A DNA stretch of 64,000 nt from a virus (IMGVR_UViG_3300032213_000911:2042-66041), one strand, 5' to 3'. Positions 39,201 to 55,284 are shown, counted from the stretch's first letter. Numbers and translations are program-made. The notes: generated by a model from the letters alone, not told the origin.

Positions 39201-41023
39201 CTGGAACTAAGGGTGTACGGATGGGTAATTTTATGCGTATTCTTTACAATAAAGCAAGGGAAGAAGCATATGCTTTAGGTGGAGAAAAGAGAGCTTCTGA
39301 AATTGATGCTGGGTTTGATAGACTATCTAATGATTATTTAGCTTATCAAAATAGATTGTCAATGATTCAAACAAGAGGAGAACGGTTAGCTACTGAATCT
39401 ACCGAAATCGGTCTTGGTCTTGTTAGAGCACTTAGCGGAACATTGTGGGGTATTACTGGTAGTGCTGAACCATTACAGCATCTAATCATGTCTCCATTTA
39501 CAGTAGGTCCAATGCAAACTATTAAGAATATTTGGGAAACAGTTAGAATCCTTATTGGAGATAAACGGTTCTCAACTAGTGCAGCATTAAAAGATGAAAT
39601 GATGGAAAGCATATTCTTTATGGATCTTGTAAGAGCAGATACTCAAGATAGATTACTTAATCTTGATGGAGATGGAGTACCAAGAATTAGTCGCTGGTTT
39701 GATCGTCTAAAAGCTAGAAGAGAAGATTCTTCTACTTTAGGTAAAGGTGTAGATATATTTGCTAATACAATGGTTGAAATTGGTTCTTCAAGATACACTA
39801 CATTCCTTGCACGAAAACTAGCAATGCAAAGATTCAGTACACGGTTTGCTAAGTTTATTAATAATGGAGCAGCTGAAAGATTCTTTACAAAGTTATCAGA
39901 TCCAATTGTTCAATCAAGAATGAGAGCATTAGAAGAAGCCGCAGCTACTGATATAAAAGCAGCCAAAGAATTAGACAAGATGTTTAAAGAAATAAGCAGA
40001 CAGTCCGGCTTTGGTGGTCGTTGGGATGTAGCTATGGCTATGAATAAATACGGCATTAATACTGTTGAGCGTATTACAGCACTAAAAAAAATGTTTGATA
40101 AGCTAGGCCCACAATATTCAAAGTCTGGTTTAATTAATTGGAAAGAGCTTAGAACAGTTGTTGATGAGCTAAAGAAAACACCAATCATTAGAGATCTTAA
40201 TTATGATGTTGCCAGAGATGCTTATGAGTCATTTATCTTTGCTACAGAAAGCATGGTAACAACTGAAGGTGCTATCTCTGCTAGTCGTGGTTTAAATAGA
40301 GATCTTAGAATTGAAGGTAGAACACCATCAGGTAGATTGTTTAAATCTCTACTTGGTTGGTCACAGAGTTTCTATAATAATGTTCTAGGAAATCACGGTG
40401 GTATTAAATCATCTGCCTTAATAGGTAGTATGGTTCTATATACAGGTTTAACCGCAATATCTGAATACATGAAAGAATGGATTAGAGGTAGGGATTGGGA
40501 AGACATCAAGGAAGAAATGACTAAAGATCCAGAAACATTTATCTATAGAATGATGATGAACCTTCCAGCATTGGGCGGTCTATCTGGTAATCTTCAGTAT
40601 GTCTTAGCTAAAACCAGCGAAGCAACTGGTGGTCCACTAAAAGCATTTAGAACCCCAATGATGGCTCCTGCTTATGCTATGGCTATGCAACAACCATTCA
40701 AGATGGCTAACTCTTTATATAATTTAGTTACTAATTCAATACCATCTGGAGATATTCCTGCAACTATGTCAGATCTTGGTAGTGTAACTATGATTAATAA
40801 TTTATTCAATAACTCACCAGTAGCAGTTCCAGCTAGACTCCTAGTAGAAAATAAGTTTATTACCGAAGGTGATGCTTTGGGTAAATATATGAAGTTAATT
40901 AATAAAACAAAGAATACCTATAAAAAGGGTTCTAAGTACAATGGTCCTAGCTTTGTTCAAGATGACGAAACAATGAAAAGACTAGTGGCCGAAATCATTA
41001 GAAGACAGTCTCAACCCAAATAA
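30281..41023 (+). CDS. giant (3580 aa) internal virion/ejection protein, polyvalent
   Basis: Uninterrupted ORF, last structural gene; HELGH zincin motif, YHGG ART-like domain, FtsK-gamma-like helix set, hydrophobic segments near both ends. Confidence 0.85.
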   Translation: MYNPYNKDTNYNYSTKYGAPLYGNIDPDVWYTATQPVNFFRSFFSNTPFGVGDSEKAREGVLPSVTLEDMNKLANWSFTPPTQNDMDTYMRLSYLSQGGYSGLIGRDVDQTAKYRATLGFGANPYVDIAKPLLENLPPSEVQKQNQNNPWYDYFLSQNPEIGIDPETKEKYFVDKNGNRIKEFSPNSNPAIKLDGDYISNKDPRWQELSKANVQDGTWYRLQKSLQAEGSLPSLLLAGVAYATKEKANTAFGVAMPGSLDQMTKELLGEVSLASYDSMLNPFNSAGIDDDIKKYLEPTAEEKINGFNSNKWWTENINPEVIPFLAQKGITPDSIAPAKGAREALAKVQFALSESTIQQRMGRYNVENPWKSGIIATLGYTLPTALINDPDLALTLGLSVATLGAGTLVRGGIKGLELTASSAKAAARIEKILQTAKQSKLVSAAQGLYQISMGDLPLWFKNYSYLQKVGIGAGIAGAVNAGASVRDHLNRVSFATTGLYNNNQDEDMLSEITSSFIAGAVFGGVLGSLGHLAHPDIGGNKYTARPDLKTNALRLINDANGTEKSLLNETPQQRAALNEGISASREEMTVRAENRPPDILEPTKENVQPNSVEVIDQRGNRIRVQEEDITSISEVSEKILSGEYKVVRDQRNKTDVAIRSELNPITEKPKIVSEEVPLNAAEKHVVDSEKFADAADTARRASAGTLAEATDSTALDRTAGESDISFATRLIRANHIRNLSDLFKITQDKSSSQKSIVGKLVQFKKQTESIKTTLNEVLEKKLVNFIKEEEVRILLQKLDKFVEDDLDIRLSKALDTGTGAFNKLTPEKRSSMIFFIQDHAGKTDDEIKKLINESSFDSNEKRMLKNRLLEKKPRAQRKKLIDEILADNSISDKSRKILNTLLGTPENLTLTQRKLASGAYRKEKYFFKKASYLTGEFYLDFKGVLDKTLDTLTLGNKTAAKANADLITGLVRSALVNLRLPERAGLNRIELSIGNLKEGVLGNNKLVTKADGTTVLQITLDGKTLAKALETGDNALIAHTVLHELGHAYSYFATPQDVLKILTMYSEFLDPEVLEAFINITEATRGGLADSVGLYAAINPGEVFANHFANQGLVTGLDSAAKLRLSFLEAFSTYIESIIDGIADVFTFDNTTKLKLKRISKVLNEVIENISQTSNVNTVTLIDFVKQERDFTNSLVKSSLYTSDKKQYQKNIIDEIKKIISTIEPKAANKFNSEILNWLNGIEVYGKISIKMLEPLIDLDFNNQLKIPLKALTEKYGTIIKFPENMSNLAKLEMLLNPENTLAVQLQHELNFVTQYDAIKNIVKTAELTSTRIGLERYLITNKLDALPSIQALNDFAKTEGKYISSGLNRYLSTFIFGLENINENIIRLEELNSKAKNKSILRQNVFNLKNGSSFNNKIIFRPSFDTGLDDTSLVLYHGGTWTGAKAPNMLHSGTLQAAIDRAGTNLTPTSDTNIVAFTVSKEANIIEMVDTGTNHMSFEDYWKAISYAYRSKPDQTLGDILRTIIVDKKKANEIITSLEQGYKETQTEIKVFETPNDLKEILKQAGVDIIKYKNVGEDIGSTSFIIVNPNSISVKANGKFDNGFVWTWRSRSTGKILDNLTQDLHDINYRGSDSLQTIIKVLPDLSGIMADASEAISIQKEVEFKPTTITEVTAETKPLLEQELNNLLIKVEGLKPSFFKRLTGVVKATTSLVISPEDAKSTLTDVWFASKAQLDKNEVPLILKAKSETEIFRIVAGFKKNISLKELEARAKSGKVSGIDSAENVDVIAGLANRNNETIDDAATDLDALRKRLSDFSNFLNNNRPVFSGNVVNEIQELMKIRLEYSKLTKGFKAGKTPKLPAGAALELYFRRFPEERRVYDNALKEIPKHPLFNKAIEIIADVLNDKNPQIFNALLQRRLGISEKEAIAIKEQLIQTGVIEKQPITFAHNILVTKEQLKKYIELTAIPSKENKEKVLEIKKKATSLLTRIQKQEKFALEEFNDMVQSERPIQSEKVLHDAILEKVSKSEDKAIDTQQTKVENQVKDQAQLKENKAALTSKEETPEIAAPVIKGIGNKESFISSDWDGDPNKLELGLIFTNEKRAANVKKKQSSKYTVRVELDKSKVFKVVSAGTSAYQAIKNLPEPILRIAGINKSIMERVLGAVTKEHSEQEAFRVILNKLNEEGYTAVEFIDLKGNLIGHSPTSKDNVKVVETLNHEETKKVGYTKLDAARKKKITEPKPTAKPEPESIRVEPEAPIDPVDTVVPVSKTGEPDVETAPITKGESDIPVISEEEKFVHEVLNASETLRWNGTTPKIIRLALVKFMSAAKELRENIGVDLKGIPEEFKGLLYKVVRVAEEIAEENRTRFGDLYENINNEFWTIFDREVAKEILHRSKPDGELSVRTIGDIIDFAHQKINENIIIKNKRDGTSLPEFLRPISPDEFEFTSSKLTNKMPDDVKFKKGSLASSMDKRIEKRIEDAAKAPEEKAPVTKELEEDEVADAVLGAINSNPKDNTMLLRESNWISAVFGGSQRDGRNWWRKLMNGLVNVIEVRAQTAYTARSLSNIVRTISAFADNSKAHIHNLVGGGKNAIKSWEQCSHETWRMLSGIRNSATTLAQSLGNERIYSLISVEIMKSFATKTPLDRAKLEAVIRTVIPTPSVEYLNTNILNITSLHNAVAEVNKTLLDLETETGFIKKGISLVDKDGNAVKPTEYYPITFVGELVTRENQDAVIKEMVRVRTATLNASDKLDNTVMLSMGWFYNKEGYVLDRGRSLEGRQQFFLNEADFDAQTLINLEERRYPPGTDPKTMIEFRGEASNRHFTYKDPTTKELVVCRLPREKTDLSAVDLVKYNETVMGSNAHVGKQWKANFTGKMSVLEVMMQDLLDSKLYRGKYSKDLATRKGNATTPMLALTDNARLEHGSVIPTLTWEEILASDTITKIMRHEPLEAYSNFVVSRGFELLVQKEIDRLTGTKGVRMGNFMRILYNKAREEAYALGGEKRASEIDAGFDRLSNDYLAYQNRLSMIQTRGERLATESTEIGLGLVRALSGTLWGITGSAEPLQHLIMSPFTVGPMQTIKNIWETVRILIGDKRFSTSAALKDEMMESIFFMDLVRADTQDRLLNLDGDGVPRISRWFDRLKARREDSSTLGKGVDIFANTMVEIGSSRYTTFLARKLAMQRFSTRFAKFINNGAAERFFTKLSDPIVQSRMRALEEAAATDIKAAKELDKMFKEISRQSGFGGRWDVAMAMNKYGINTVERITALKKMFDKLGPQYSKSGLINWKELRTVVDELKKTPIIRDLNYDVARDAYESFIFATESMVTTEGAISASRGLNRDLRIEGRTPSGRLFKSLLGWSQSFYNNVLGNHGGIKSSALIGSMVLYTGLTAISEYMKEWIRGRDWEDIKEEMTKDPETFIYRMMMNLPALGGLSGNLQYVLAKTSEATGGPLKAFRTPMMAPAYAMAMQQPFKMANSLYNLVTNSIPSGDIPATMSDLGSVTMINNLFNNSPVAVPARLLVENKFITEGDALGKYMKLINKTKNTYKKGSKYNGPSFVQDDETMKRLVAEIIRRQSQPK

Positions 41024-41046
41024 ACCAATAGTTGGAGCTATAGATA

Positions 41047-41086
41047 TTTCCCATAGGGGTATTCTTAGGAATACTCCTATGGGAAA
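41047..41086 (+). repeat. long inverted repeat at the right end of the genome
   Basis: TTTCCCATAGGGGTATTC-TTAG-GAATACTCCTATGGGAAA (18-bp stem, one G-T). Confidence 0.8.
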
Positions 41087-41253
41087 CCTATAGATTAAAT
41101 AATTTTTGTATTTATTACTTAGTTCCCTGTCGGGATCGTAGGGGACTCCTCGGTAATCAATACAAAATAACACTACACAGATCCCGGTCGATTTCGATAT
41201 AAATTGAATAATACAATCCCCTGCGGTAGCCCCAGATACCTGTGGGGGTATAT

Positions 41254-41326
41254 TCTCCTATAGCTCAGTCGGTAGAGCAGAGAGCTGTTAACTCTCGGGT
41301 CGTTGGTTCAAGTCCATCTGGGAGAG
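41254..41326 (+). tRNA. tRNA-Asn(GTT)
   Basis: Cloverleaf: TCTCCTA/TGGGAGA acceptor, GAGAG-CTGTTAA-CTCTC anticodon arm, TTCAAGT T loop; CCA not encoded. Confidence 0.9.
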
Positions 41327-41339
41327 TTTGGAAAATCGG

Positions 41340-41412
41340 CTTAGGGGTCAAAAATTTATAAAGTGATATCCCCCTCTGTAGCCTCCCCCCTAACCCCCCG
41401 TACCCCCCGTCC
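41340..41412. other. probable physical genome end / terminal-repeat junction
   Basis: C-run cluster and abrupt switch from AT-rich late genes to GC-rich early-type sequence. Confidence 0.45.
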
Positions 41413-41559
41413 GATAAACCAACGCCCGGTAACTAGGGATGCCCCTAGCCGGTTATCGGCCCACATTCGGCAAGGGCATCGGGATCGGCAGGCATCCCGT
41501 ACTACTAGTGTCCTCGCCGCAGCGTGCGGCAGGCAACGCAAGTTCTCGAAAGGATTCCA

Positions 41560-41844
41560 ATGGGTACTATCCTGCGTGGGTTGGTCAGCGAGTGTCTGTC
41601 GAACTTCTCCGAAGATAAGTTGGTCGCGGTTCTTCGGGAGGCGCATCATGTGCTCGGGGATGGTCGCAAGGTGCACGGGTTGTTCTGCGACATGTGGAAG
41701 GTGTTGTTCCCGAATGGCACGCTGGATGATCGCAAGGCCATGTACGCTCGGGTTCTCACGATGGCTAATCTGCCGTCCAAGAACTACGGTAAGGCCGTCA
41801 CGAAGGCCGATGTGTTCTCCCGGCTGGATGCGCTCGGAGTGTGA
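41560..41844 (+). CDS. first early gene, hypothetical (GC-rich codons)
   Basis: AAAGGA RBS before ATG 41560. Confidence 0.65.
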   Translation: MGTILRGLVSECLSNFSEDKLVAVLREAHHVLGDGRKVHGLFCDMWKVLFPNGTLDDRKAMYARVLTMANLPSKNYGKAVTKADVFSRLDALGV

Positions 41845-41847
41845 CAC

Positions 41848-41915
41848 GGATTCCCCCGCGTTGTTCGCGGGGATTCCCTAGGCGATACCCTGCGGGGTAT
41901 CTCTAGGGGATTCCC
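41848..41915. repeat. two GC hairpins flanked by three GGATTCCC copies
   Basis: CCCCGCG/CGCGGGG and CCCTAG-GATACCC/GGGTATC-CTAGGG inverted repeats. Confidence 0.6.
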
Positions 41916-41965
41916 TCGGATGTTCCGATGGATGATGCCCTGCTCTTTTCTAGGAGGATTGTTCC

Positions 41966-42238
41966 ATGAATCTGCTCGACGAAATTCGCAAGGGTTGTTC
42001 GGTGGTGCGTCATGCCCAGATTGTGCTGGCCATCTGGAAGATGGATGGCGAGGCTACCATCACGGAAGTTCTGGAGTATGTCCGTGCGAGAACTGGGAAG
42101 TCTATCGACCGGGAAGACTTGGAGCGTGTTGTTCGCTTCATTCCCTCCTCCAGTTCCCGCAAGGTTCCCGGCGTGAAGTCTGCGCCGGATACCACGCCCA
42201 TGATGCCCCGTTGGGATCGTCCGAAGGTTTCAATCTAA
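41966..42238 (+). CDS. early hypothetical protein, possibly winged-helix
   Basis: AGGAGG RBS; IVLAIWKMDGEATITEVLEYV pattern. Confidence 0.65.
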   Translation: MNLLDEIRKGCSVVRHAQIVLAIWKMDGEATITEVLEYVRARTGKSIDREDLERVVRFIPSSSSRKVPGVKSAPDTTPMMPRWDRPKVSI

Positions 42239-42256
42239 CCCGAAAGGATTCTTCAA

Positions 42257-42511
42257 ATGAAGACCGAATCAACTTTCACTATCGGCATTACTTTGGCGGA
42301 TATTGATGCCTGCGGAGTTATGGAACAATGCGGGAACATTTCCAAGAGAATCGCAGAGATTCAGGAAATGATCGAAATAATCCGTCAGGCTAGCCGCAAG
42401 GGATATCCCGATATTGTTCGGGATCATGCCAACAGGATTATCCCTCGGATTTATAACATCTATCTTCGGGCACAAGTTGCCATGATGGATGCCGAGAAAC
42501 TTGCCAAGTAA
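42257..42511 (+). CDS. early hypothetical protein
   Basis: AAAGGA RBS. Confidence 0.65.
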   Translation: MKTESTFTIGITLADIDACGVMEQCGNISKRIAEIQEMIEIIRQASRKGYPDIVRDHANRIIPRIYNIYLRAQVAMMDAEKLAK

Positions 42512-42609
42512 ATGTCAAACAATCCGCCCCGGTTATCGGGCGCGGGTTGTTGATAGCGAAGCGTTGATAGCGAAATGGTTGGCGAGATGGTTTCTGTAGT
42601 TTTGATTGT

Positions 42610-43160
42610 GGTATTTATTGGTGGATAACCGATAGGTATCTTTCAGGCAGGATTGTGGAAGCGAATCGTAACGAGTGAATCGCTATGAGTTGTATGGGGT
42701 TGTTCACAAAGAACTCAACCATGCAAGTACCGTGAGAATCCACTCACTAAATACGAAGACACCACAGAATCTTCCCTTATGGTATCCCTAGGTGAAATAT
42801 CCTATGGATATCTTTCCCGAAACTGTAGGAATAACCCGCCATTGCAGTAGTTCGGAGAAAACAAGGGTGTATATTTATGGGATTAGCATTCATCTCATAA
42901 ATGAAATAGTGCGAATGTTTTCAGATAGGCTAACCATGTAACCTATCGGTGTTGGCATGGTGGTATCCATAGGTGAAATATCCTATGGATATCTTTCAGT
43001 TGAATAGTTACTATCTCTGCAACAAGTAGCACCCTCTTTGTGTGCCTTGGGATTGTAGAAGTAACTAGGGTTTGTGGTGAACCTTGTAATGTTGGGTCTT
43101 GTGTAAGGACTCTAACTATTCCTTATGGAATAACTGTAGACATAAACCACACTCTCTAAT
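42610..43160 (+). ncRNA. putative structured non-coding segments punctuated by hairpin+TTTC elements
   Basis: No ORF of 60 aa or more; many nested stems with G-U pairs; repeated hairpins at 42610, 42781 and 42962. Confidence 0.5.
42780..42997 (+). repeat. 37-nt direct repeat pair (42780-42816, 42961-42997), each a hairpin
   Basis: TGGTATCC(C/A)TAGGTGAAATATCCTATGGATATCTTTC, one mismatch. Confidence 0.9.
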
Positions 43161-43186
43161 CCGGCTATGCCGGGAAAGGTTTGCAC

Positions 43187-43384
43187 ATGATTCAGCATTC
43201 GTCAAACTTCCGAGACAGAACTAACCGTTGTATTGTTTCTCTTCAGGAAGGTTTTCGTGATCGACTGAAGGAATCTTTGCCACTCCATAAGCATGGATTA
43301 GTTGATTCAATGTTTGAATCCCTGAATCTTTATGCTCAGGAAGTTGAGAGTCTTCAGCAACAGATTGATAGGATTTCAGCATGA
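43187..43384 (+). CDS. early hypothetical protein
   Basis: GAAAGG RBS; stop overlaps next start. Confidence 0.55.
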   Translation: MIQHSSNFRDRTNRCIVSLQEGFRDRLKESLPLHKHGLVDSMFESLNLYAQEVESLQQQIDRISA

Positions 43385-43752
43385 ACATCTATAAGTTTGT
43401 TCAGAACAATAGCGGTGGATATTATGTTGGCCCTGCTGAGTTTGTTGTTCGTGCTGAATCTGTAGAAGGTGCTTGGGCTGAACTAAAGAAGCAAGAATGG
43501 TTTACTACAGATTTCTGTGAGTGTTGTGGTGAGCGTTGGTATAACCCCGAGGTTCTTGAACCAATAAAGGAAAACAGTATGAACTGGAATGACATTGCAG
43601 GTGTTAATCTGACTGATACTGAGTTGAAGGAACTTCGCTCTACTGTCAAGTCTTTGCAGGATACTGTTAAGGATTTGCGGGCAAGTCTTGAAATCGAGCA
43701 GATGTTGAATCGTGCTTTGATGAAGAAGGTTCAGAGGTTTGAGAATGTTTGA
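43381..43752 (+). CDS. early protein with QNNSGG...CECCGERW domain fused to a coiled coil
   Basis: QNNSGG and CxCCGxRW motifs; in-frame internal ATG 43579 with AAGGA RBS. Confidence 0.7.
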   Translation: MNIYKFVQNNSGGYYVGPAEFVVRAESVEGAWAELKKQEWFTTDFCECCGERWYNPEVLEPIKENSMNWNDIAGVNLTDTELKELRSTVKSLQDTVKDLRASLEIEQMLNRALMKKVQRFENV

Positions 43753-43834
43753 GCTTCTTGCCATTGCTTTGGTTGTTGTTACTTGTATTGTTATTACTTG
43801 TGTTGCATTGCACAATGTAAACAAACTTGGATAA
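43745..43834 (+). CDS. 29-aa membrane peptide
   Basis: MFELLAIALVVVTCIVITCVALHNVNKLG; GAGG upstream. Confidence 0.45.
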   Translation: MFELLAIALVVVTCIVITCVALHNVNKLG

Positions 43835-43846
43835 CTGATCTCTCCC

Positions 43847-44055
43847 GCATTCTCATGGTAGAAATATCATGGGAGTGTTTCAGGCATTTCGCGTGGTAGC
43901 CTCTTAGATAACCACATATGTTGTATAGCAACTACACCTATACAAAGGAGACACATGTAGGGTACTAGGTAAACGCGTAGTCCATAACCTAGGTAGGCAA
44001 GTGGTTCGCCACGGGATTCTCTTTCGGGAGAATCCCCTACGATGTACTTGTCTGT
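43847..44055 (+). ncRNA. putative multibranch structured RNA preceded by a hairpin+TTTCAGG element
   Basis: ACAT-GTAGGG/CCCTAC-G-ATGT closes three hairpins, two with TTCG loops. Confidence 0.5.
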
Positions 44056-44081
44056 TCTTTTCCATCTTATAGGAGAATCAA

Positions 44082-44351
44082 ATGAAGAATCGTGAAACTA
44101 CACTTTATGGGGAACAGTTTGAAACTGTTCTTATTTGTTTGCGAGATAGAATGGTTAGTATTGCAGAAGATATTAAGAAAGCACCATACCATTCAGATAA
44201 TGGTGAAGGTTGTCATGGTGATGATGATTGGCGTTATAACCTACACATGAGTACGCTCGTTTATAAAATGTCTCAAGTTAGTACATTGTATTATGAGATG
44301 GTTACTCAATGTGATTATGTTGACAATGATGGACAAACTAACAATGGATGA
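44082..44351 (+). CDS. early hypothetical protein
   Basis: AGGAG RBS. Confidence 0.65.
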   Translation: MKNRETTLYGEQFETVLICLRDRMVSIAEDIKKAPYHSDNGEGCHGDDDWRYNLHMSTLVYKMSQVSTLYYEMVTQCDYVDNDGQTNNG

Positions 44352-44579
44352 GTTTATTATTATCAGTTGGTACATAAAGGTTATTGTTCTTTGTGTACTG
44401 TCCCCCGTGATCTTGTTTCTTTATTACAAGGATAAGCGAAACTTAAATGGACAATGATTATTGGGCAGCTTATGCTGCTGTTGATTGTATTGTTGAATCA
44501 GACCTAATCGCTGAAGAAGATGATTATGTTGTGATTTCTATTCCTCGTTCTCTGTGGGATTCTTATCAGGAGTTGGCAA

Positions 44580-44792
44580 ATGGAAACTAGTGCACCTAAT
44601 ACTTATATGGATTGGTGGGTAGTGTATCGTACTGTTGATAATCGCAAGTGGCGTACTCTCAGTTACCACGATACTAAGTATGATGCTAATCGTGCAGCAA
44701 TGCAAGCAATGTTTGGTGTTGTTGGTACTGATGTTGTGTGTGTTCACCGTGATGATCTTGAACCCTATCTTGGAGATAACGCAAATGCCTAA
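44580..44792 (+). CDS. early hypothetical protein
   Basis: AGGAG RBS; overlaps its neighbours. Confidence 0.6.
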   Translation: METSAPNTYMDWWVVYRTVDNRKWRTLSYHDTKYDANRAAMQAMFGVVGTDVVCVHRDDLEPYLGDNANA

Positions 44793-45300
44793 CTGGTGTA
44801 TGAATACTGTTGTTGCAAAGCACTCTGATCCTAAGAAGATTGCTGGTCTTAGGGATGCTCTTGTTCTTGATGTGTTCTTTGAACATATTATTCCTATTGG
44901 TGAATGGGACTATAACAAGGCTATTGATAAGTGGTCTACCAAGTGGGAAGCATCTGGTATTTCTTGGATGAAGTTCCCTGATGGTAGGACTGGTAATGAT
45001 TATCTTGAGATTTCTTTTGAATCTGCTTGGTGTCCTCCAGAGAATGTTTATGAGGCTATGATTCAGGATGGTTGGCGTATTACTGCTTACTTCTATGAAC
45101 CCGGTATGGGGTTTGTTGGTAAGTACGGTACTGATCTTGATGGTATCTACGAGGAATCATATGAGATCAATAATGAACCTATTCCTGCTGAGTTGGTTGA
45201 GATGTTTGGTATTCAAGAGATGTTTGAGGATACCGAGTATGAACTTGTTGAAAATGATGATGGTTTCTATGAAGTAAAGGAGATTGAGAATGCCGACTGA
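44785..45300 (+). CDS. DUF1281/YubB-like ferredoxin-fold protein
   Basis: MPNWCMN, WSTKW, FESAWCPP, YEPGMGFVG motifs; GGAG RBS. Confidence 0.75.
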   Translation: MPNWCMNTVVAKHSDPKKIAGLRDALVLDVFFEHIIPIGEWDYNKAIDKWSTKWEASGISWMKFPDGRTGNDYLEISFESAWCPPENVYEAMIQDGWRITAYFYEPGMGFVGKYGTDLDGIYEESYEINNEPIPAELVEMFGIQEMFEDTEYELVENDDGFYEVKEIENAD

Positions 45301-45652
45301 AACTAGTGTGATTATTCCTAAGCATGATAATCAGTATGCTAAGACTGATGTTGCTCAGTCTATCTTTGAAACTTTTGTTTGGTATGTGTCTACTCACTTT
45401 GGTGGGTGTTCTGTTGTTGAAGGACAGGGATTCTATAAGATGAGTGACACCAAGGTTCAATGTGATGAATGGTGGAAGGTTAGTATTACCTATGACAAGC
45501 AGGAAGAAGTTGATTCTTGTGTTCAGGCTCTAATCAATACACTTTGCAAGCAACTTGGTCAGGAATCTGTTATGGTTACTTATACTGAAGTTGCTGTTAT
45601 GTTTTCGGCAGAATCTAAGATCAATACAAAGGATATCTATGCTCTTGTTTGA
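45290..45652 (+). CDS. putative S-adenosylmethionine lyase (T3 SAMase-like)
   Basis: GGCSVVEGQGFYK...DEWWKV...LGQESVMV parallels the T3 SAMase G-Y-K, E and Q-x-x-V-L-V signature. Confidence 0.55.
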   Translation: MPTETSVIIPKHDNQYAKTDVAQSIFETFVWYVSTHFGGCSVVEGQGFYKMSDTKVQCDEWWKVSITYDKQEEVDSCVQALINTLCKQLGQESVMVTYTEVAVMFSAESKINTKDIYALV

Positions 45653-45884
45653 ATATTTTGTGTTCAACAGTCTGTCTAACGACAATCCACGAAATGTCAA
45701 TCCAGCTGTATTCCGTAAGGTTTATGGTATCAATGGTGCTGGAGATGAATATGTTGGATGCTTGTCTAATATCCTAGATTCTGTTGATTTTTACAAGCGT
45801 AACCTTGAAGTTGCACTTGATAAGATTCGTAAGTTGGAGTATGATCTCAAGCATTATAAGGAGAATACCGATGGGACTGCTTAA
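45639..45884 (+). CDS. early hypothetical protein
   Basis: AAGGA RBS before ATG 45639. Confidence 0.55.
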   Translation: MLLFEYFVFNSLSNDNPRNVNPAVFRKVYGINGAGDEYVGCLSNILDSVDFYKRNLEVALDKIRKLEYDLKHYKENTDGTA

Positions 45885-46080
45885 GTTGAAGGCTAATAAG
45901 AAGTTGAATGGTAAGCATTATCGTTGGGGTGATCTGTATGATTCGTGGAATCAGACACAGAAGGATCACTTTGATGGTAAGTTGGATGTGTATGCTCCTA
46001 TCATGCGTAATAATATTCAGTATCCTAGCATTGCGGATCAATGGAAGGCAGACTTTTCAAGGAAGATTAAGAATGGATAA
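45871..46080 (+). CDS. early hypothetical protein
   Basis: AAGGAG RBS before ATG 45871. Confidence 0.55.
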   Translation: MGLLKLKANKKLNGKHYRWGDLYDSWNQTQKDHFDGKLDVYAPIMRNNIQYPSIADQWKADFSRKIKNG

Positions 46081-46276
46081 CAGTCAATACAAGTTTGAAT
46101 ATATGGGTGATGAGTATGTTGCTCATCTGAGTCATATTGAAGACCCTGATGGTGCTCCTCATGTTGAGATTGATCACATTGAGGATATCTATGGATCTCA
46201 TATTGAGCCAACAGAAGATGATGAGTTTGGTAATGAACTGTACCAATATTTTTGGGAGAACTATAGTGGGTCTTGA
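46073..46276 (+). CDS. acidic early hypothetical protein
   Basis: AAGGA RBS; D/E-rich. Confidence 0.55.
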   Translation: MDNSQYKFEYMGDEYVAHLSHIEDPDGAPHVEIDHIEDIYGSHIEPTEDDEFGNELYQYFWENYSGS

Positions 46277-46652
46277 TATTTACGCAATGGAAACCAAGAA
46301 TGCTGATCCTGAGTTGTTTGCTGGAATTAAGCTTTGTGGTGGTGAGTTGCATACTGATACTACTAGTTTTCGTGGTAAGGTATACGAGTCTCTTGTTCAA
46401 TGGATGACTGGTGATGAGGTTACTCTTTATCAGGAAGTTGTTCCATTTGATGATCTTCGTAAACTTGCTGATCAGTTTGCCTTGTTCTTTACCGAAAATC
46501 CTGATGACACTAAAGCACAGGAACTTCTGAATGAACTGTTTTACAATACAAAGCAGATTGATTATGCCCATACTGTTGATGAGGTTCGTAACCTTCTTAA
46601 GTTTTTTAATGTTTGTCTTGATAACAATCTTCATCTGAGAGGATGGTGGTAA
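46266..46652 (+). CDS. early hypothetical protein (MGLD-start phage family)
   Basis: GGAG RBS, GTG start, MGLDIY...RGWW. Confidence 0.65.
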   Translation: MGLDIYAMETKNADPELFAGIKLCGGELHTDTTSFRGKVYESLVQWMTGDEVTLYQEVVPFDDLRKLADQFALFFTENPDDTKAQELLNELFYNTKQIDYAHTVDEVRNLLKFFNVCLDNNLHLRGWW

Positions 46653-47144
46653 ATGTCTGAAGCAGAAATTAATGATGCTCTTGATTGGCTTTTGGTTAAT
46701 GATTTTGTTTCTGTTAGTTGGGATGAGAATGGTGTTGATTACTATAGTGTAACTGAAAAGGGCGAAACATATTTTAATTTGCTTAATGCTTTTAAGGAAG
46801 AAGATTCAGATGATGGATATCAAGTATGTTGATTGGGTTCATCGTCTAGATATGATGCTTCTTGACGAGGCTATTGTTTGGGAAGATGTTGCTCAGTTTA
46901 TGCCGCACCATTATTATCTTCTTGGTAAGTCTCCAGAAGATTTTATGTTTGACATGAAGGAAATGATCAATGATTAATTACTATGTTATGAAGGTTAATA
47001 CTGGATGGTATGAGGTCCGCCGTTCTTATGGTAACGGTTCGAATAATGTCGAGGTTATTGATGCCTTTGAAGATGAATCAGACGCTTTTAATTTTAAGTC
47101 TTGGCTTGAGAATAAGGATGGTAATCTGATCGGTTTCTATCCCT

Positions 47145-47166
47145 AAAGTTGGGGCTACTGATAGGG
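47145..47166 (+). promoter_or_regulatory. candidate phage RNAP promoter
   Basis: AAAGTTGGGGCTACTGATAGGG; near-identical intergenic copy at 54050. Confidence 0.6.
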
Positions 47167-47178
47167 ACCACAATACTC

Positions 47179-47251
47179 GCCCTCTTAGCTCAGTTGGTAG
47201 AGCAGTTGACTTTTAATCAATAGGTCGTAGGTTCGATCCCTACAGGGGGCA
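47179..47251 (+). tRNA. tRNA-Lys(TTT)
   Basis: Canonical cloverleaf; GTTGA-CTTTTAA-TCAAT. Confidence 0.93.
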
Positions 47252-47254
47252 CTT

Positions 47255-47587
47255 ATGGAGAATCTTATGAAAGAGTTATTTAGAGACTATGAAGAAATCA
47301 ATATTAATATTAATTGTATTGATTACTTAGTTAACTTTAGATCCCTTGAGTTCTGGCATCTTGTTGATAATGGTATTGGTTGGTATGATTACTTTGGTGC
47401 TACAGGTATCCATGAAGAATGGGAATGGGAACTTGGTGATGTAGAGATATCTGATATTTCAATTATTGAGTTTGATGAAGATGAAAACTCAATACTCAAA
47501 CCAATTGAGTCTTTTGATTCTGCATTCGCTATCAACATTTACGAAGCGTGCCACAAGTATACTAAGGATAATGCTATAGAGCCTTGA
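47255..47587 (+). CDS. acidic hypothetical protein
   Basis: 110-aa ORF between tRNAs. Confidence 0.55.
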   Translation: MENLMKELFRDYEEINININCIDYLVNFRSLEFWHLVDNGIGWYDYFGATGIHEEWEWELGDVEISDISIIEFDEDENSILKPIESFDSAFAINIYEACHKYTKDNAIEP

Positions 47588-47592
47588 TTTAC

Positions 47593-47666
47593 TGGGATGT
47601 GCCTGAACTGGAGGAAGGCCGTGACTTATAATCGCGTATATGCGGGTTCGAGTCCCGCCATCCCTA
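47593..47666 (+). tRNA. tRNA-Ile(TAT)
   Basis: CGTGA-CTTATAA-TCGCG anticodon arm; GCGGG-TTCGAGT-CCCGC T arm; T1-T72 mismatch. Confidence 0.85.
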
Positions 47667-47707
47667 CTATTGTTTTGTTGTTTAATTCTATTTGAAAGGA
47701 AAGTGTA

Positions 47708-48103
47708 ATGAGTACTTTTGCAGAGCAGCTTGATGAACTGATTAAGGATACTGTCGGTGATCTTATTGATGAGAAGATTGAAACCGAACTTAGTAACTTT
47801 AAGGATGATATTGACAACATTCGTTATGAGACTGAGCAGATGTGTGATTCTAATATCTCAGACATGAAGGATGACATTCTTTCTGAAGTCGATGCTATGG
47901 TTAATGATGTTGTTGGAGATAGGCTTGAAGAACTTAAGCAGAACGGCAGTACTATTAATAATAACGATATGCGTTATATTAATGATCTGATTAAGTCTGT
48001 TGTTGATGAGCGTCTTTGCAATGCTGTGACTACAATTTATCAATCCGTTATGAAGGAGTTGAATGGTTTTGTTCAATCCACTCCTCCATACAAGGGTAAT
48101 TGA
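47708..48103 (+). CDS. very acidic helical protein
   Basis: AAAGGA RBS; D/E-rich. Confidence 0.7.
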   Translation: MSTFAEQLDELIKDTVGDLIDEKIETELSNFKDDIDNIRYETEQMCDSNISDMKDDILSEVDAMVNDVVGDRLEELKQNGSTINNNDMRYINDLIKSVVDERLCNAVTTIYQSVMKELNGFVQSTPPYKGN

Positions 48104-48110
48104 TTCATGT

Positions 48111-48184
48111 GTTCCTGTAGCTCAATTGGATAGAGCGTGGCACTTCTAATGCTAAGGCTAATGGTTCGATTCCATTCAGGAACG
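48111..48184 (+). tRNA. tRNA-Arg(TCT)
   Basis: GTTCCTG/CAGGAAC acceptor; TGGCA-CTTCTAA-TGCTA. Confidence 0.92.
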
Positions 48185-48333
48185 CTTTATGAAATATGGT
48201 CTATGGTGTAAAAATTTAAAAGATTGGATGATGGAAAATAAAAACGACATTGCTTATTGGGAATCTGATAAAGAGGCCGATAAGTGGCGTAAAAGTCATA
48301 CTGTTCATCCAGATAATTACGAAGTAAAGAAAC

Positions 48334-48362
48334 TTGACAAGCGCAAGGAGATGTGATATAAT
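48334..48362 (+). promoter_or_regulatory. consensus sigma70 promoter
   Basis: TTGACA (48334-39), 17-nt spacer, TG-n-TATAAT (48357-62). Confidence 0.8.
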
Positions 48363-48525
48363 GAGCGGTAAGCATTCAGCTGGTAAGGGTGATAAGTATC
48401 GCCCATTGGATAAGAAGCAATACGATAAGAACTATGAGGCTATCTTTGGTAAGAAGAAGCCTAAGAAAAAGAATACTGAAAAAATTATTAAGCAACTTGA
48501 TGATTTGTTTGATGGTAAGATTTAA
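48361..48525 (+). CDS. small basic protein (AGKGDKYRP...YDKNYEAIFG)
   Basis: AAGGAG RBS; motif common in phage small proteins. Confidence 0.6.
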   Translation: MSGKHSAGKGDKYRPLDKKQYDKNYEAIFGKKKPKKKNTEKIIKQLDDLFDGKI

Positions 48526-48532
48526 ATACTAC

Positions 48533-48605
48533 GGCCAAGTAGACCAACGGCAGAGTCAAGACACTTAAAATGTTTGTAGTGTGGGTTCGAATCCCACCTT
48601 GGTCA
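48533..48605 (+). tRNA. tRNA-Leu(TAA), short variable loop
   Basis: GGCCAAG/CTTGGTC acceptor; AGACA-CTTAAAA-TGTTT; GTGGG-TTCGAAT-CCCAC. Confidence 0.88.
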
Positions 48606-48609
48606 TGTT

Positions 48610-48682
48610 GGGGCTATCGTCTAGTGGTCTAGGATAGGAGGCTTTCATCCTCTTGACCGGAGTTCGAATCTCCGTAGCCTCA
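48610..48682 (+). tRNA. tRNA-Glu(TTC)
   Basis: GGGGCTA/TAGCCTC acceptor; GGAGG-CTTTCAT-CCTCT. Confidence 0.92.
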
Positions 48683-48860
48683 CTATTGGAGTTTATATGA
48701 AACAAAGTAGAAACAAAGATAAAGACAGATACAAGTATAAAAAGAAAGAACAGAATAAGGGTTGGGGTAAGCAAAAGAGAGATCGTATTAAAGAAGATTT
48801 TAAAGTTCGTGATCGTTCTGATTTTAATTAGCATCTGTTGATGCAGAAAGGTGTGCTATA

Positions 48861-49868
48861 ATGGCTCACGAGATTATGGAAAAGGATACTGCTGTGTTTA
48901 ACCGAGTTGCTGCTTGGCATCGTCTTGGTACTGTTGTTGATTCGGATATGTCGCCTAATGATGCTTTGATGGCTGCTGGTCTTGACTGGAATGTTTACAA
49001 GTCTTCTTTTATCAAGGCTAGTATTCCTAACTGTGATGATGTGTTTAGTACTGATTACGCTGCTCTTATTCGTGAAGACACGAAGGAAATTCTTAGTGTT
49101 CAGTCAGCTGATTATCAGGTGATTCAGAACAAGGAACACTTTGAGATGGCTTATGAACTTAGTAATGATGTTAAGGTTGAGTCTGCGCTTAGTCTTAAGA
49201 ATGGTCGCAAGGTTGTTCTTCTTCTTCGTGGTGATACCTTTGATGTTGCTGGCTCTAGTGGCGATACTGTTACGGAATACATGGGTCTAATCAATAGCCA
49301 TGATGGTAGTATTGCTTTCTCTGCCTTGCCAACAAGTGTTCGTATTGTTTGTCAGAATACTCTTAGCATGGCAATTGCTAAGGCTCGTCGTGGAAAGAAT
49401 ATGTTTAGAATTACCCACAAGGGTTCTACTATGGAAGACAAGAAGGATGCAATGCGTGAAGCACTTCGTGAATTCAAGTCTAGTGGTAAGTTCTTCCGTG
49501 AGACTGTTAATACTCTTGCAAGCCGTGAACTTACCAAGAATGATATTCAGAAGTTCTGGATGGATGTTTGGGGTATGATTGAGGCTCCCATTGTTTCTAA
49601 TCCAAGCAATGGACATGAACAGAATAATTACGACAATGCTCTAAAGGCTGTGTCTAATTGGTCTGAAACCTTTGACCGTGAAAGGGATGAGACTAAGAGT
49701 AGAGCTAGTATCTGGATGGCTGCTAATGCTGTTAGCAAGTTTATCCAGCATCGTACTGCCGCTAGAGGTCGTGTGGCAAAGCCTGAGAATCGTGCATGGG
49801 ATAATCTTGCAGGACTTACTCAGGATGATACTATGAAGGTTTTCCGTCACGCTCTTACTCTTGTCTAA
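48861..49868 (+). CDS. DUF932-family phage/plasmid protein
   Basis: MAHE...AWHRLG, AGLDWNV, YQVIQN, NSHDGS, VRIVCQNTL motifs. Confidence 0.85.
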   Translation: MAHEIMEKDTAVFNRVAAWHRLGTVVDSDMSPNDALMAAGLDWNVYKSSFIKASIPNCDDVFSTDYAALIREDTKEILSVQSADYQVIQNKEHFEMAYELSNDVKVESALSLKNGRKVVLLLRGDTFDVAGSSGDTVTEYMGLINSHDGSIAFSALPTSVRIVCQNTLSMAIAKARRGKNMFRITHKGSTMEDKKDAMREALREFKSSGKFFRETVNTLASRELTKNDIQKFWMDVWGMIEAPIVSNPSNGHEQNNYDNALKAVSNWSETFDRERDETKSRASIWMAANAVSKFIQHRTAARGRVAKPENRAWDNLAGLTQDDTMKVFRHALTLV

Positions 49869-49922
49869 TCATTAATTTGATGGTGGGATGCGCATACCTA
49901 TAACGCATTATAAAGGTGATAT

Positions 49923-50312
49923 ATGGATAAAAAGATTGCAAATATGTGGATTAAGGCTCTTGAATCTGGTGACTATAAGCAGGGTCATTTTGCTCTTAGA
50001 TCTGAGAATGATTGTTTCTGTTGTCTTGGAGTTCTTTGCGATCTGTATGACAAAGATCGTAAGCAAAAGAAAAAGAGATCTATCAAGATTACTAATGCAA
50101 AGTATAATGGAAATAAAAACTTTTCTTGTTTTAAGTATGGTAATCAAACGGATTTTCTTCCAGTTGCTGTTAAGAATTGGGCTGGAATGTCAACCAATAA
50201 AGGTTGGTTAAATGGTATTCATCTGTCAGGTTTAAATGACGGTGATTACGATAAGCACTATACTTTTAAGGATATTGCTAAAATTATTAAGAAAAATATT
50301 GAAATTCTTTGA
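49923..50312 (+). CDS. hypothetical protein (W..AL.SG.Y.QG...FCCLGVLCD family)
   Basis: Recognisable phage family pattern ending LND...TF.DIA..I. Confidence 0.75.
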   Translation: MDKKIANMWIKALESGDYKQGHFALRSENDCFCCLGVLCDLYDKDRKQKKKRSIKITNAKYNGNKNFSCFKYGNQTDFLPVAVKNWAGMSTNKGWLNGIHLSGLNDGDYDKHYTFKDIAKIIKKNIEIL

Positions 50313-50324
50313 TAGGAGGTTACT

Positions 50325-52828: not shown

Positions 52829-53071
52829 ATGGCAAAAAAGAAAAAGAAAAGAAAGATTATAAAGGTACAAAATGAAGGTGATATGGAAAATGCTGTTAAG
52901 CGTGTGGTTGATTTGGCTTTGTCTGATCAAGTAAAAAAAACCATAAACTTGTGGTTTCCAACTGGAAGATTTGGTGCTATATTTTTAGATAACTGTCATA
53001 ATGAAATGATGTTAAAAAATGTTCCAGAACAAACTGATATGAACATAAACATCTATATAAATGAGGATTAA
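52829..53071 (+). CDS. hypothetical protein
   Basis: AAGGA RBS; basic N-terminus. Confidence 0.6.
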   Translation: MAKKKKKRKIIKVQNEGDMENAVKRVVDLALSDQVKKTINLWFPTGRFGAIFLDNCHNEMMLKNVPEQTDMNINIYINED

Positions 53072-53073
53072 TA

Positions 53074-53733
53074 ATGTCTAGAGTTTTAGTTATAGGTGAC
53101 ACGCATTTTCCTGCGGTTCACAAGAATTACTTTACATTTGTTAAAAAGATTCGTGATAAGTACAAGTGTAATGAAGTAGTTCATATGGGTGATGTTGTTG
53201 ATCACCATTGTATTTCGTTTCATGCAAAGCATCCTGAAAACGAGGGTGCTGTTACTGAATACAAGAAGGCTTCGATTTGTATTAAGCAATGGGAAAAAGA
53301 GTTTCCAGAGTTAAAGGTTTGTATTGGTAATCACGACGAAAGAGTTTATAGATTAGCTTCAAATATGGGTATTCCAGATTTTTATCTGAAAGACTATAAT
53401 GGAGTTTATACAACAACTAAATGGGAGTGGATGTATGCTCATATTATTGACGGCGTTCGCTATCAACACGGTACTGGGTCTTCTTCTCAATATCCAGCTT
53501 TTAATACGGCTAAGATGTCGGCATTCCCCATTTGCATGGGACATCACCATTCTATTGCTGGCATCAATTGGCTTTGTGGCCCTGATCGTAGGATTTTTGG
53601 AATGGATGTTGGGTGTGGCGTAGACAAGGATAGATATGAAATGGCTTATGGTAAAAACCTAATTAAGAAGCCAGTCATTTCTTGTGGCGTTGTAATTGAT
53701 GGTCATCCTTATCTTGAACTTATGAATATGTGA
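53074..53733 (+). CDS. calcineurin-like metallophosphoesterase
   Basis: GDTH, GDVVD, GNHD, HG and GHHH motifs. Confidence 0.9.
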   Translation: MSRVLVIGDTHFPAVHKNYFTFVKKIRDKYKCNEVVHMGDVVDHHCISFHAKHPENEGAVTEYKKASICIKQWEKEFPELKVCIGNHDERVYRLASNMGIPDFYLKDYNGVYTTTKWEWMYAHIIDGVRYQHGTGSSSQYPAFNTAKMSAFPICMGHHHSIAGINWLCGPDRRIFGMDVGCGVDKDRYEMAYGKNLIKKPVISCGVVIDGHPYLELMNM

Positions 53734-53741
53734 GGTATAAT

Positions 53742-54050
53742 ATGGAACAAAAGAAGTTTGCTGTACTTACTGAAGAAATGTTTAAGTTTGTTACTCCTAA
53801 GTTTACTGTTAGAATGTGGCTTCCACTAACTCAACCGTTTAGTCAAAACGATCTTTACCCAACTTCTGATGGTTTTGTTGCTGATGATAGTTGGATGAAG
53901 CATAATATTGAACAATGTATTAAAAGCAAATGGAAAGATCTTGGTATATCTGAACTTGGTCTTCGTCTATTATCTGCATACGAGGCCAATGCCGTTGAAG
54001 TTCTTGACAAGGACGGAAATGGTAAGGTTTTCTATAACGACTGGCCCTGA
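53742..54050 (+). CDS. hypothetical protein
   Basis: GAGGT RBS before ATG 53742. Confidence 0.55.
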   Translation: MEQKKFAVLTEEMFKFVTPKFTVRMWLPLTQPFSQNDLYPTSDGFVADDSWMKHNIEQCIKSKWKDLGISELGLRLLSAYEANAVEVLDKDGNGKVFYNDWP

Positions 54051-54071
54051 TAGTTGGGGCTAATGATAGGT
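54050..54071 (+). promoter_or_regulatory. candidate phage RNAP promoter
   Basis: ATAGTTGGGGCTAATGATAGGT; intergenic, upstream of the replication genes. Confidence 0.6.
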
Positions 54072-54097
54072 ACTATCAGAAAGGAGGAAGTATAACA

Positions 54098-55180: not shown

Positions 55181-55183
55181 GTG

Positions 55184-55266
55184 TCTTTGGTAGTTTAAAC
55201 TAGTAGAACAGTATACATTTACCCCAAGCGTGTATAAAGATGGTGGTGCAAATCCACCCCAACGAT
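55184..55266 (+). ncRNA. tRNA-like element with 13-nt anticodon loop
   Basis: TCTTTGG/CCAACGA acceptor (1 mismatch), GTTT/GAAC D stem, TATACA/TGTATA stem, GGTGG-TGCAAAT-CCACC T arm. Confidence 0.7.
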
Positions 55267-55284
55267 TTAAAAGGAGATTTAATT

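Follow-up and report, generated by a model that had tools for sequence, protein, structure and literature searches.

Why does a phage that encodes only six tRNAs carry five of them in one cassette, at the point where its codon usage starts to change? The question is raised by positions 41254-48682 of a 64,000-nucleotide (nt) stretch of viral DNA (IMGVR_UViG_3300032213_000911:2042-66041), which was analyzed over its whole length and is here called the window; in it a GC-rich leader and a series of small early genes precede the tRNA cassette. An earlier note, made from the sequence alone, had proposed that the earliest genes match the tRNA pool of a GC-rich host and that phage tRNAs then license the translation of AT-rich late genes. 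We found that codon usage does change in genome order and that the first change falls at the cassette. The explanation that we prefer, at a probability of roughly 60%, is a graded supplementation of the host tRNA pool of the T4 and cyanomyovirus kind, with translational selection acting most strongly on the first-expressed and the most abundant proteins.

Genome and Gene Order

The window comprises bases 2042-66041 of a single 66,041-base contig. Because the two contig ends share 123 bases (an assembly overlap), the assembly is circular, and the virus is an uncultured, T7-like phage of ~65.9 kb and 35% GC (35.5%). Open reading frames (ORFs) were predicted with a self-trained caller, which gave 68 genes; four ORFs that the caller's model rejects, three of them the ORFs of the GC-rich leader, were added by hand. 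All 68 called genes lie on the plus strand, and candidates on the minus strand were found only inside longer plus-strand genes. Gene order is T7-like, the leader and early genes being followed by the tRNA cassette, an RNA polymerase gene, genes of DNA metabolism and structural genes (Table 1). As in T7-like phages, a single-subunit RNA polymerase gene occurs in the early region, one strand is used, and early genes lead through DNA metabolism to the virion genes; the genome differs from theirs in its length of 65.9 kb, as against ~37-45 kb with direct terminal repeats. Since transcription has a single direction, gene position can stand for time, and the codon pattern takes the form of a monotonic positional gradient.

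Codon Usage along the Genome

Starting at the end of the 3580-amino-acid (aa) gene, codons were counted in 72 ORFs taken in genome order, and the ORFs were divided into leader (3 ORFs, 265 codons), early (43.1-47.2 kb; 14 ORFs, 1188 codons), tRNA-zone (47.2-50.3 kb; 7 ORFs, 847 codons), middle (19 ORFs, 5342 codons) and late (29 ORFs, 13187 codons) classes. Across these five classes, in that order, AAA made up 6, 6, 27, 39 and 74% of Lys codons, TTA 0, 1, 9, 27 and 46% of Leu codons, AGA 9, 8, 26, 48 and 72% of Arg codons, ATA 5, 2, 5, 13 and 22% of Ile codons, and GAA 53, 62, 61, 77 and 93% of Glu codons. As a joint measure, AAA, ATA, AGA and TTA (below, the four codons) were summed and expressed as a fraction of all Lys, Ile, Arg and Leu codons. 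They accounted for 13/335 in the 17 ORFs before the cassette vs. 1739/3407 in the 29 late ORFs (Fisher p = 2e-75), and their share of all codons was 0.8-1.5% in the early and leader classes vs. 13.2% in the late class. Over the 72 ORFs, the Spearman correlation with genome order was +0.81 for A at third codon positions (A3; p = 5e-18), -0.70 for G+C at these positions (GC3; p = 9e-12) and +0.71 for the four codons (p = 2e-12), with similar values for the 44 ORFs of at least 100 codons. A maximum-likelihood binomial fit with two change points placed the changes at 47267 and 62121, separating fractions of 0.04, 0.25 and 0.50. The first of these is the ORF that starts 15 nt after tRNA-Lys, and the cassette also borders or contains the next-best positions for the first change (46970 and 48189).

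The per-gene trend in GC3 and codon use that the earlier note had put forward as its test is therefore present, and its finer claims held in part. Among AAG, GAG, CGT and CTT, said to be favored by early genes, AAG is indeed preferred (94% of Lys codons in early genes), whereas GAG is not, GAA being the major Glu codon there. Among AAA, GAA, AGA, TTA and ATA, said to be favored late, the claim fails for ATA, since late Ile codons are 71% ATT. High GC3 is confined to the three leader ORFs; the early genes at 43-50 kb lack it, with 54% T and 14% A at third positions.

The trend is thus mainly a gradient of A3, not of GC3. In late genes, A3 (42%) and T at third positions (T3; 44%) are nearly equal. 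Within the early region, A makes up 27% of intergenic DNA, 42% of second codon positions and the above 14% of third positions; since it is depleted at third codon positions alone, selection on codons, and not a regional mutation bias, is indicated. The trinucleotide AAA is depleted in the early region (observed/expected, 0.59) and AAG is enriched. Avoidance of ACA-type endoribonuclease sites by the early genes was considered and ruled out, ACA not being among the depleted trinucleotides. When the 14 A-ending sense codons were ranked by late-vs-early log odds, TTA, AAA and AGA were the three largest, and the five codons cognate to the cassette tRNAs outranked the other nine (Mann-Whitney p = 0.014). 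Late-over-early enrichment of cognate codons was strong for AAA, TTA, AGA and ATA, weak for GAA, and absent for Asn. AAC and AAT were flat over the classes, with AAT at 73-78% outside the leader, so the tRNA-Asn gene stands outside the gradient; it may be related to the abundance of Asn in the proteome (6.6-7.3% in early, tRNA-zone and late classes; 5.6% in the middle and 3.0% in the leader class).

A few genes depart from the positional trend. The capsid gene uses the four codons at 13/80, in contrast to 0.40-0.70 in its late neighbors, and among the middle genes low values were seen for the gp2.5-like single-stranded DNA-binding protein (SSB; 1/49) and the primase-helicase (17/150). In all three genes, A/(A+T) at four-fold degenerate sites is ordinary. 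The same was observed in four distantly related genomes (polymerase identity, 49-67%), where the four codons stood at 0.02-0.24 in the capsid and 0.00-0.05 in the SSB gene, as well as 0.17-0.32 in the portal and 0.22-0.36 in the terminase gene. The four codons are therefore disfavored where output must be highest, even late in infection. Such avoidance is expected if they are decoded slowly and phage tRNAs compensate only partly, and it is hard to explain by mutation bias.

tRNA Genes

ARAGORN identified exactly six tRNA genes in the window, all on the plus strand, and each matched Rfam family RF00005 with 48.9-74.8 bits (cut-off, 29). The set first noted, five tRNAs with U at anticodon position 34 (U34) plus tRNA-Asn (GUU), is thereby confirmed, as is the absence of an encoded CCA after all six. 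No further tRNA was found in the whole 66,041-base contig, and positions 40900-50400 gave no weaker RNA hits, including in a search for extra or degenerate tRNAs such as one reading CAA. While the other five are interleaved with small ORFs, the tRNA-Asn gene stands alone, separated by 230 nt from the stop codon of the last late gene upstream and by 232 nt from leader ORF1 downstream. All five U34 tRNAs read A-ending codons of split boxes (TTA, ATA, AAA, GAA, AGA); of the six such codons only CAA is missing, and no U34 tRNA reads any of the eight remaining A-ending codons, of which seven belong to family boxes (hypergeometric p = 0.003). In bacteria, split-box A-ending codons need dedicated U34 tRNAs, or a lysidine tRNA in the case of AUA. 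GC-rich bacteria hold such U34 tRNAs at low copy, since C34 isoacceptors serve the G-ending partner codons.

The tRNA sequences indicate intact, conserved genes. When tRNA-Lys sequences of eight relatives were aligned, the cloverleaf proved to be kept: 12 of 21 pairs show compensatory changes, and the anticodon loop does not vary. For the remaining tRNAs, compensatory stem changes were seen by eye, and the anticodons are fixed among relatives.

Two of the tRNAs are structurally unusual. The tRNA-Leu (UAA) is only 73 nt long, with a 3-bp D stem and discriminator A and without a long variable arm, likewise in the close relatives and in the distant genome G002; its counterparts in G003 and G004 are ordinary, at 84-86 nt. 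The tRNA-Ile anticodon is encoded in the genome as UAU and not as the CAU that lysidine converts in bacteria. In the clade of the window, this tRNA has a U1-U72 mismatch at the top of its acceptor stem; the first pairs of G001 and G003 are normal.

Consensus Promoter within the Cassette

Upstream of tRNA-Leu lies a consensus sigma-70-type promoter; no other site in the 64-kb window matches sigma-70 at 12/12 positions, and 0.07 such sites would be expected. Ten of 12 related loci have the identical promoter, despite a spacer between tRNA-Arg and tRNA-Leu whose length ranges from 143 to 364 nt; in two loci the promoter starts 4 nt after tRNA-Arg, in a spacer without an ORF. In the two loci that lack it (L009 and L012), the best match is 8/12. 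The promoter suggests that host polymerase transcribes at least tRNA-Leu and tRNA-Glu early and that the host has a canonical sigma-70. A search for promoters of the phage polymerase yielded no exact 11-mer recurring at least four times in a promoter-like fashion.

Conservation among Relatives

A polymerase scan of IMG/VR identified 14 loci with 84-99% identity. The five cassette tRNAs were present in the same order in 11 of them; L011 holds the last three before its contig ends, and L005 and L014 stop short of the region. The tRNA-Asn gene was found in five of the 14. In all 11 loci the ORFs upstream of the cassette avoid the four codons (e.g., AAA 2/53, ATA 0/50, AGA 1/22 and TTA 0/65 in L001), the higher counts in L003 and L007 being due to an end of the late region included in those loci. 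Two contigs are mosaic, with polymerases 95% (L003/L037) and 99% (L013/L077) identical to that of the window and capsids only 55 and 58% identical.

More distant relatives were collected with a capsid scan (76 loci, down to 35% identity), which gave four whole genomes of 65-69 kb (G001-G004) with polymerases 49-67% identical. In each, a giant gene of 4152-4311 aa is followed by a block of 50-58% GC, in G002 a single 1-kb bin at 50%. Their tRNAs are Ile-UAU, Arg-UCU, Leu-CAA and Lys-UUU in G001; Ile-UAU, Arg-UCU, Leu-UAA and Lys-UUU in G003 and G004; and Ile-UAU and Leu-UAA, together with an Ile-AAU call, in G002. The four codons stand at 0.08-0.17 before the first tRNA and at 0.30-0.48 in the late genes of these genomes. 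The family as a whole has a GC content of 35-43% with similar tRNA sets.

G002 has some peculiarities of its own. The direct terminal repeat reported for it in IMG/VR amounts to no more than an overlap of 22 nt. Two late-region genes of 882 and 862 aa, at 3-8 kb in flipped coordinates (L095-L098), lie in a second GC-rich block (50-57%), and the tRNA-Ile called by ARAGORN with the unusual anticodon AAU lies at 37009-37081.

GC-Rich Leader

In 200-nt bins over 41300-42299, GC content was 0.53-0.605 vs. 0.355 genome-wide, which bears out the ~55-60% first noted for the genes at 41.5-42.2 kb. Third positions of the leader ORFs are 29% C, 35% G, 28% T and 8% A (64% G+C), making this the only GC3-rich class. 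All three ORFs are full-length in the related locus L010, with 72, 74 and 60% aa identity. ORF1 and its L010 orthologue differ at 20, 15 and 39 first, second and third codon positions, including 21 synonymous codon changes, and have GC3 values of 0.76 and 0.78; as GC3 is stable across these changes, the GC-richness is maintained and does not represent a fresh, decaying import. The leader ORFs gave no match to a Pfam or PHROG family, and only five homologues of ORF1, all unnamed, were present among 5.8 billion proteins.

In seven of the eight related loci profiled, 250-nt bins of the leader had 50-60% GC; L009, cut at its contig end, begins at 48%. Leader content differs between close relatives. 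In L012 (86% polymerase identity) the GC-rich zone extends over ~3.5 kb and includes, at 1561-3672, a second single-subunit RNA polymerase of 703 aa (PF00940, E = 3e-39), so that this phage has two T7-type polymerases. The 702-codon gene for the leader polymerase uses AAA at 4/37, ATA at 0/33, AGA at 3/52 and TTA at 0/52.

Possible Explanations of the Gradient

Under the graded supplementation that we prefer, the cassette tRNAs would read the A-ending split-box codons (Lys AAA, Ile AUA, Arg AGA, Leu UUA, Glu GAA), with tRNA-Asn in addition. By analogy with T7, gene order would be the order of entry and expression. Host RNA polymerase would transcribe at least the last two cassette genes early from the consensus promoter, the host would decode AAA, AUA, AGA and UUA poorly, as GC-rich bacteria do, and the phage tRNAs would accumulate with time. 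Genes translated before this accumulation, or needing very high output, would be selected for T- and G-ending codons read by G34 and C34 tRNAs of the host, and large, weakly selected late genes would drift to the AT-rich equilibrium of the phage and be served by its tRNAs. The effect is graded and is not an on/off license. Of the original proposal that phage tRNAs license the late genes, the T7-like order, the change point at tRNA-Lys, the third-position bias, the promoter and the conservation in the family support the association; the idea of a switch is not supported, in view of the graded rise, the codon use of the capsid and SSB genes, and two further exceptions given below (the DUF932 gene and the polymerase genes of G003 and G004).

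Several observations weigh against graded supplementation. By log odds, ATA and GAA rank only 7th and 8th of the 14 A-ending codons. Those without a phage tRNA rise too (GTA from 6 to 46%, CCA from 21 to 75%, CAA from 36 to 84%, and also ACA), so part of the trend is a general A3 effect. Because GAA is already the major Glu codon of the early genes and Asn codons are flat, the gradient leaves two of the six tRNAs unexplained. Since early genes are T3-rich and not C3-rich, they would not simply resemble the genes of a GC-rich host. Codon use in the DUF932 gene is still early-like (3/81), even though all the tRNAs lie upstream of it. The polymerase genes of G003 and G004 precede the tRNAs by ~5 kb, yet their four-codon fractions (0.26 and 0.22) resemble those of the genes after the tRNAs (0.27-0.29) and exceed those of the other genes before them (0.16-0.17). 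The polymerase gene starts ~9.3-11.3 kb after the giant gene in all five genomes, and distance from the left end predicts codon use about as well as does position relative to the tRNAs.

A three-tier programme set by genome entry is conceivable, though on the unlikely side. GC3-rich, host-like codons would come first, followed by a tier confined to T- and G-ending codons readable by G34 and C34 tRNAs and free of split-box A-ending codons, until a host-transcribed U34 cassette makes the AT-rich remainder translatable. Late synthesis would then be truly tRNA-dependent, and the cassette would also overcome the passive defense of hosts in which these tRNAs are kept scarce.

A strict temporal gate, with late genes untranslatable until the phage tRNAs appear and the cassette acting as a timer, would account for a first change point at the first cassette tRNA, for the near-total exclusion of the four codons upstream (13/335) and for the consensus promoter before two of the tRNAs. 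That the loss of one tRNA can block a phage is indicated by the case of Leu-TAA (PMC11726456). The rise through 0.04, 0.25 and 0.50 is gradual, however; the DUF932 gene keeps to 3/81 after the cassette, the polymerase genes of G003 and G004 precede their tRNAs and yet resemble the genes after them, and the capsid gene, the main late product, avoids the four codons. We therefore regard a gate as unlikely.

Split-box U34 tRNAs such as Lys-UUU are known targets of anticodon nucleases, and phage tRNAs might replace host tRNAs that a defense nuclease cuts upon infection. The set found here overlaps the target classes in the literature, and shunning the affected codons before the replacements arrive would fit as well. 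Such an escape predicts neither a general A3 gradient nor the avoidance of the four codons by the late capsid gene and the SSB gene. The tRNA-Lys anticodon loop, which in the window is what we take to be the ordinary CUUUUAA, is invariant among relatives, and we know of no nuclease that takes Lys, Ile, Arg and Leu tRNAs together. The hypothesis is summarized in PMC12482277; for this phage it seems distinctly improbable.

About equally improbable is that the tRNAs mainly broaden host range by letting an AT-rich phage infect hosts of differing GC content, with the gradient a by-product of stronger selection on early and abundant proteins. A role of this kind has been proposed for cyanomyoviruses (PMC3152331), and the family spans 35-43% GC with similar tRNA sets, with codon avoidance that depends on expression level, as in the capsid and SSB genes. 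Nothing in the present data bears on host range, and this account overlaps with graded supplementation rather than excluding it. The weakest alternative denies the pattern a translational meaning and invokes mosaic origin, regional mutation bias, or destruction and replacement of the whole host tRNA pool; mosaicism is real (leader content differs and capsid modules are swapped), and GC skew and AT skew do differ between early and late regions, but A is depleted at third positions only, leader ORF1 holds a GC3 of 0.76-0.78 across 21 synonymous changes, the pattern recurs in genomes at 49% polymerase identity, and a set of six tRNAs, each for a different amino acid, is too small to stand in for a whole pool, so we consider it highly improbable.

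Host, Nucleotide Genes and Habitat

A GC-rich host is plausible in view of the maintained GC3 of the leader, the 94% AAG of the early genes, and the pair formed by the GMP reductase and PurA-like genes. High use of AAG suggests a host with a Lys-CUU tRNA. The nearest cultured phages (pelagiphages, roseophages and others) are only 28-40% identical in polymerase, portal and DNA polymerase and are therefore too distant for a host to be transferred from them. A polymerase scan of genome contigs gave no relative, and a GMP reductase scan returned 40 loci in scattered lineages of metagenome-assembled genomes at 31-54% identity, which indicated no host.

In a PDB search, the PurA-like protein matched cellular PurA with E = 5e-54 and was less close to PurZ (E = 2e-21 to 3e-11). 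With GMP reductase, it would route GMP via IMP towards AMP. The pair fits a phage that needs more A than the host pool offers, on circumstantial grounds, and the link drawn in the earlier note between the codon gradient and a nucleotide re-routing kit is plausible on equally circumstantial evidence.

Matches to the phage were present in 19 DNA sequencing runs outside the possible source sample (16 of them outside its study, from 15 other studies), which carry metagenome, freshwater or lake-water labels. There were no RNA runs among the sequencing runs with matches. Four runs from four studies (X5, X6, X7 and X9) gave contigs of 0.9-3.2 kb that match the early region and cassette closely, differing for example at 135 letters in 3,221 nt and at 5 in 918 nt. 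A freshwater or lake habitat is no more than a lead. The depth of these contigs and the gaps between them carry no information on expression. A high-depth joint from 47258 to 48539 in the runs lies between tRNA genes, most likely stems from the tRNAs of other organisms, and was not used.

Other Features of the Genome

The middle genes include those for the gp2.5-like SSB, ThyX, primase-helicase, the PurA-like protein, GMP reductase, DNA polymerase, a dNMP kinase-like protein and an exonuclease. Late genes encode a portal, a scaffold, the capsid, tail tube proteins, fibres, a terminase, a 1320-aa protein ending in a lysozyme domain and the 3580-aa protein, whose position suggests an ejected internal virion protein. 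Non-coding stretches of 222, 232, 121, 675 and 329 nt occur within 41031-43186 and at 43753-44081, with many GC-rich hairpins, a 37-nt hairpin repeat at 42780 and 42961 (copies 97% alike) and C-runs directly after tRNA-Asn. Promoters, terminators or repeats related to the genome ends are possible readings of these hairpins, the repeat and the C-runs. Hairpin motifs whose core is of the CCTATGG type are also present.

Table 1. Positions of the features discussed, counted from the first letter of the window
Feature	Position	Strand	Remarks
Late genes (virion, packaging, lysis)	638-41023	+	
Capsid gene	7643-8956	+	
3580-aa ORF, last late gene	30281-41023	+	No Pfam or PHROG match
tRNA-Asn (GUU)	41253-41327	+	ARAGORN; RF00005, 63.4 bits
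GC-rich leader	41328-42511	+	55-60% GC falling to 45%; three ORFs
Leader ORF1	41560-41844	+	Preceded by Shine-Dalgarno sequence
Leader ORF2	41966-42238	+	Preceded by Shine-Dalgarno sequence
Leader ORF3	42257-42511	+	Preceded by Shine-Dalgarno sequence
14 small early ORFs	43187-47146	+	AAA 4/67, ATA 1/58, AGA 3/39, TTA 1/87; T3 54%, A3 14%
tRNA cassette (Lys, Ile, Arg, Leu, Glu, interleaved with small ORFs)	47179-48683	+	Ends 1.6 kb upstream of polymerase gene
tRNA-Lys (UUU)	47179-47252	+	ARAGORN, Rfam
tRNA-Ile (UAU)	47593-47667	+	ARAGORN, Rfam
tRNA-Arg (UCU)	48111-48185	+	ARAGORN, Rfam
Sigma-70-type consensus promoter	48334-48362	+	TTGACA-17-TATAAT, extended -10 TG; 171 nt upstream of tRNA-Leu
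tRNA-Leu (UAA)	48533-48605	+	ARAGORN, Rfam
tRNA-Glu (UUC)	48610-48683	+	ARAGORN, Rfam
DUF932 / TIGR03299 "phage/plasmid-like protein" gene, 335 aa	48861-49868	+	Largest early gene
RNA polymerase, single-subunit T7-type, 831 aa	50325-52820	+	28% identity to Pseudomonas phage LUZ100 RNA polymerase over 98% of length; four codons 72/218
Middle (DNA metabolism) genes	52829-64000	+	Run 2 kb past window end and into window 1-628; class average AAA 39%
gp2.5-like SSB	54273-54803	+	
PurA-like gene, 348 aa	58306-59352	+	249 bits vs. cut-off 402 (PurA); 107 vs. 300 (PurZ); below every cut-off
GMP reductase, 354 aa	59349-60413	+	NCBIfam equivalog, 521 bits vs. cut-off 397; overlaps PurA-like gene
627-aa ORF	64663-628 (across wrap)	+	Ribonucleotide reductase by eye only, without family search

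Comparison with Known Systems

The idea underlying this interpretation is already known; what differs here is its occurrence in a T7-like phage, with a positional gradient, a conserved GC-rich first kilobase, near-absence of the four codons upstream, and a minimal split-box U34 set. In literature searches, with supplementary files outside their scope, we met neither this family nor any T7-like phage described as combining a GC-rich leader with a codon gradient by position. In T4, tRNA genes and time-related codon usage were reportedly described by Cowe and Sharp in 1991 and by Kunisawa in 1992. The present phage resembles T4 in being AT-rich, in its small tRNA set largely for A-ending codons, and in codon patterns tied to the time of expression. 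T4, however, is a 169-kb myovirus with interspersed transcription units, whereas this phage is T7-like and transcribed in one direction, with a GC-rich leader and near-exclusion of the four codons before the cassette.

Four current hypotheses address why phages carry tRNAs (PMC12482277). Shigella phage Sf14 and the "all-destructive" vibriophage model tie phage tRNAs to late structural genes (PMC12482277), a link also seen here; in contrast to their ~26 tRNAs or near-complete set, the six of this phage would be unable to sustain translation alone. The resistance of phage tRNAs to anticodon nucleases (van den Berg et al., via PMC12482277) offers another likeness, in that the phage would carry copies of tRNAs whose host versions may be lost during infection. 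That model needs anticodon-loop changes relative to the tRNAs of the host, and it predicts no codon gradient. In a survey, early and late genes differed in synonymous codon use in half of 14 phages (PMC5683454). The early/late difference is shared by our phage; the available part of the survey describes neither a tRNA cassette at the transition nor a positional gradient.

Taken as a whole, the family offers an unusually clean natural design for testing hypotheses on phage tRNAs, with a minimal U34 cassette, near-zero use of the four codons upstream of it, and relatives that differ in whether the cassette precedes or follows the polymerase gene. Should a host be found, explanations by supply, timing and defense could be told apart by means of deletions and recoding. 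The value of the system lies in being a clean, conserved and testable case and not in a new principle. The closest parallels are among cyanophages. Low-GC cyanomyoviruses bring tRNAs for their preferred codons into high-GC Synechococcus hosts (PMC3152331), and lack of a Leu-TAA tRNA alone blocks the AT-rich phage Syn9 in Synechococcus WH5701 (PMC11726456). Our phage is likewise of low GC content and carries tRNAs for low-GC codons, and the tRNA-Leu (UAA) that is limiting there is part of the cassette here. T7-like cyanopodoviruses instead match the GC content of their hosts (PMC3152331); unlike them, this T7-like phage appears to do both, with adapted codons first and its own tRNAs for the rest. 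Host-adapted first genes and phage-encoded tRNAs, described as alternatives in cyanophages, thus appear to be combined in one T7-like phage.

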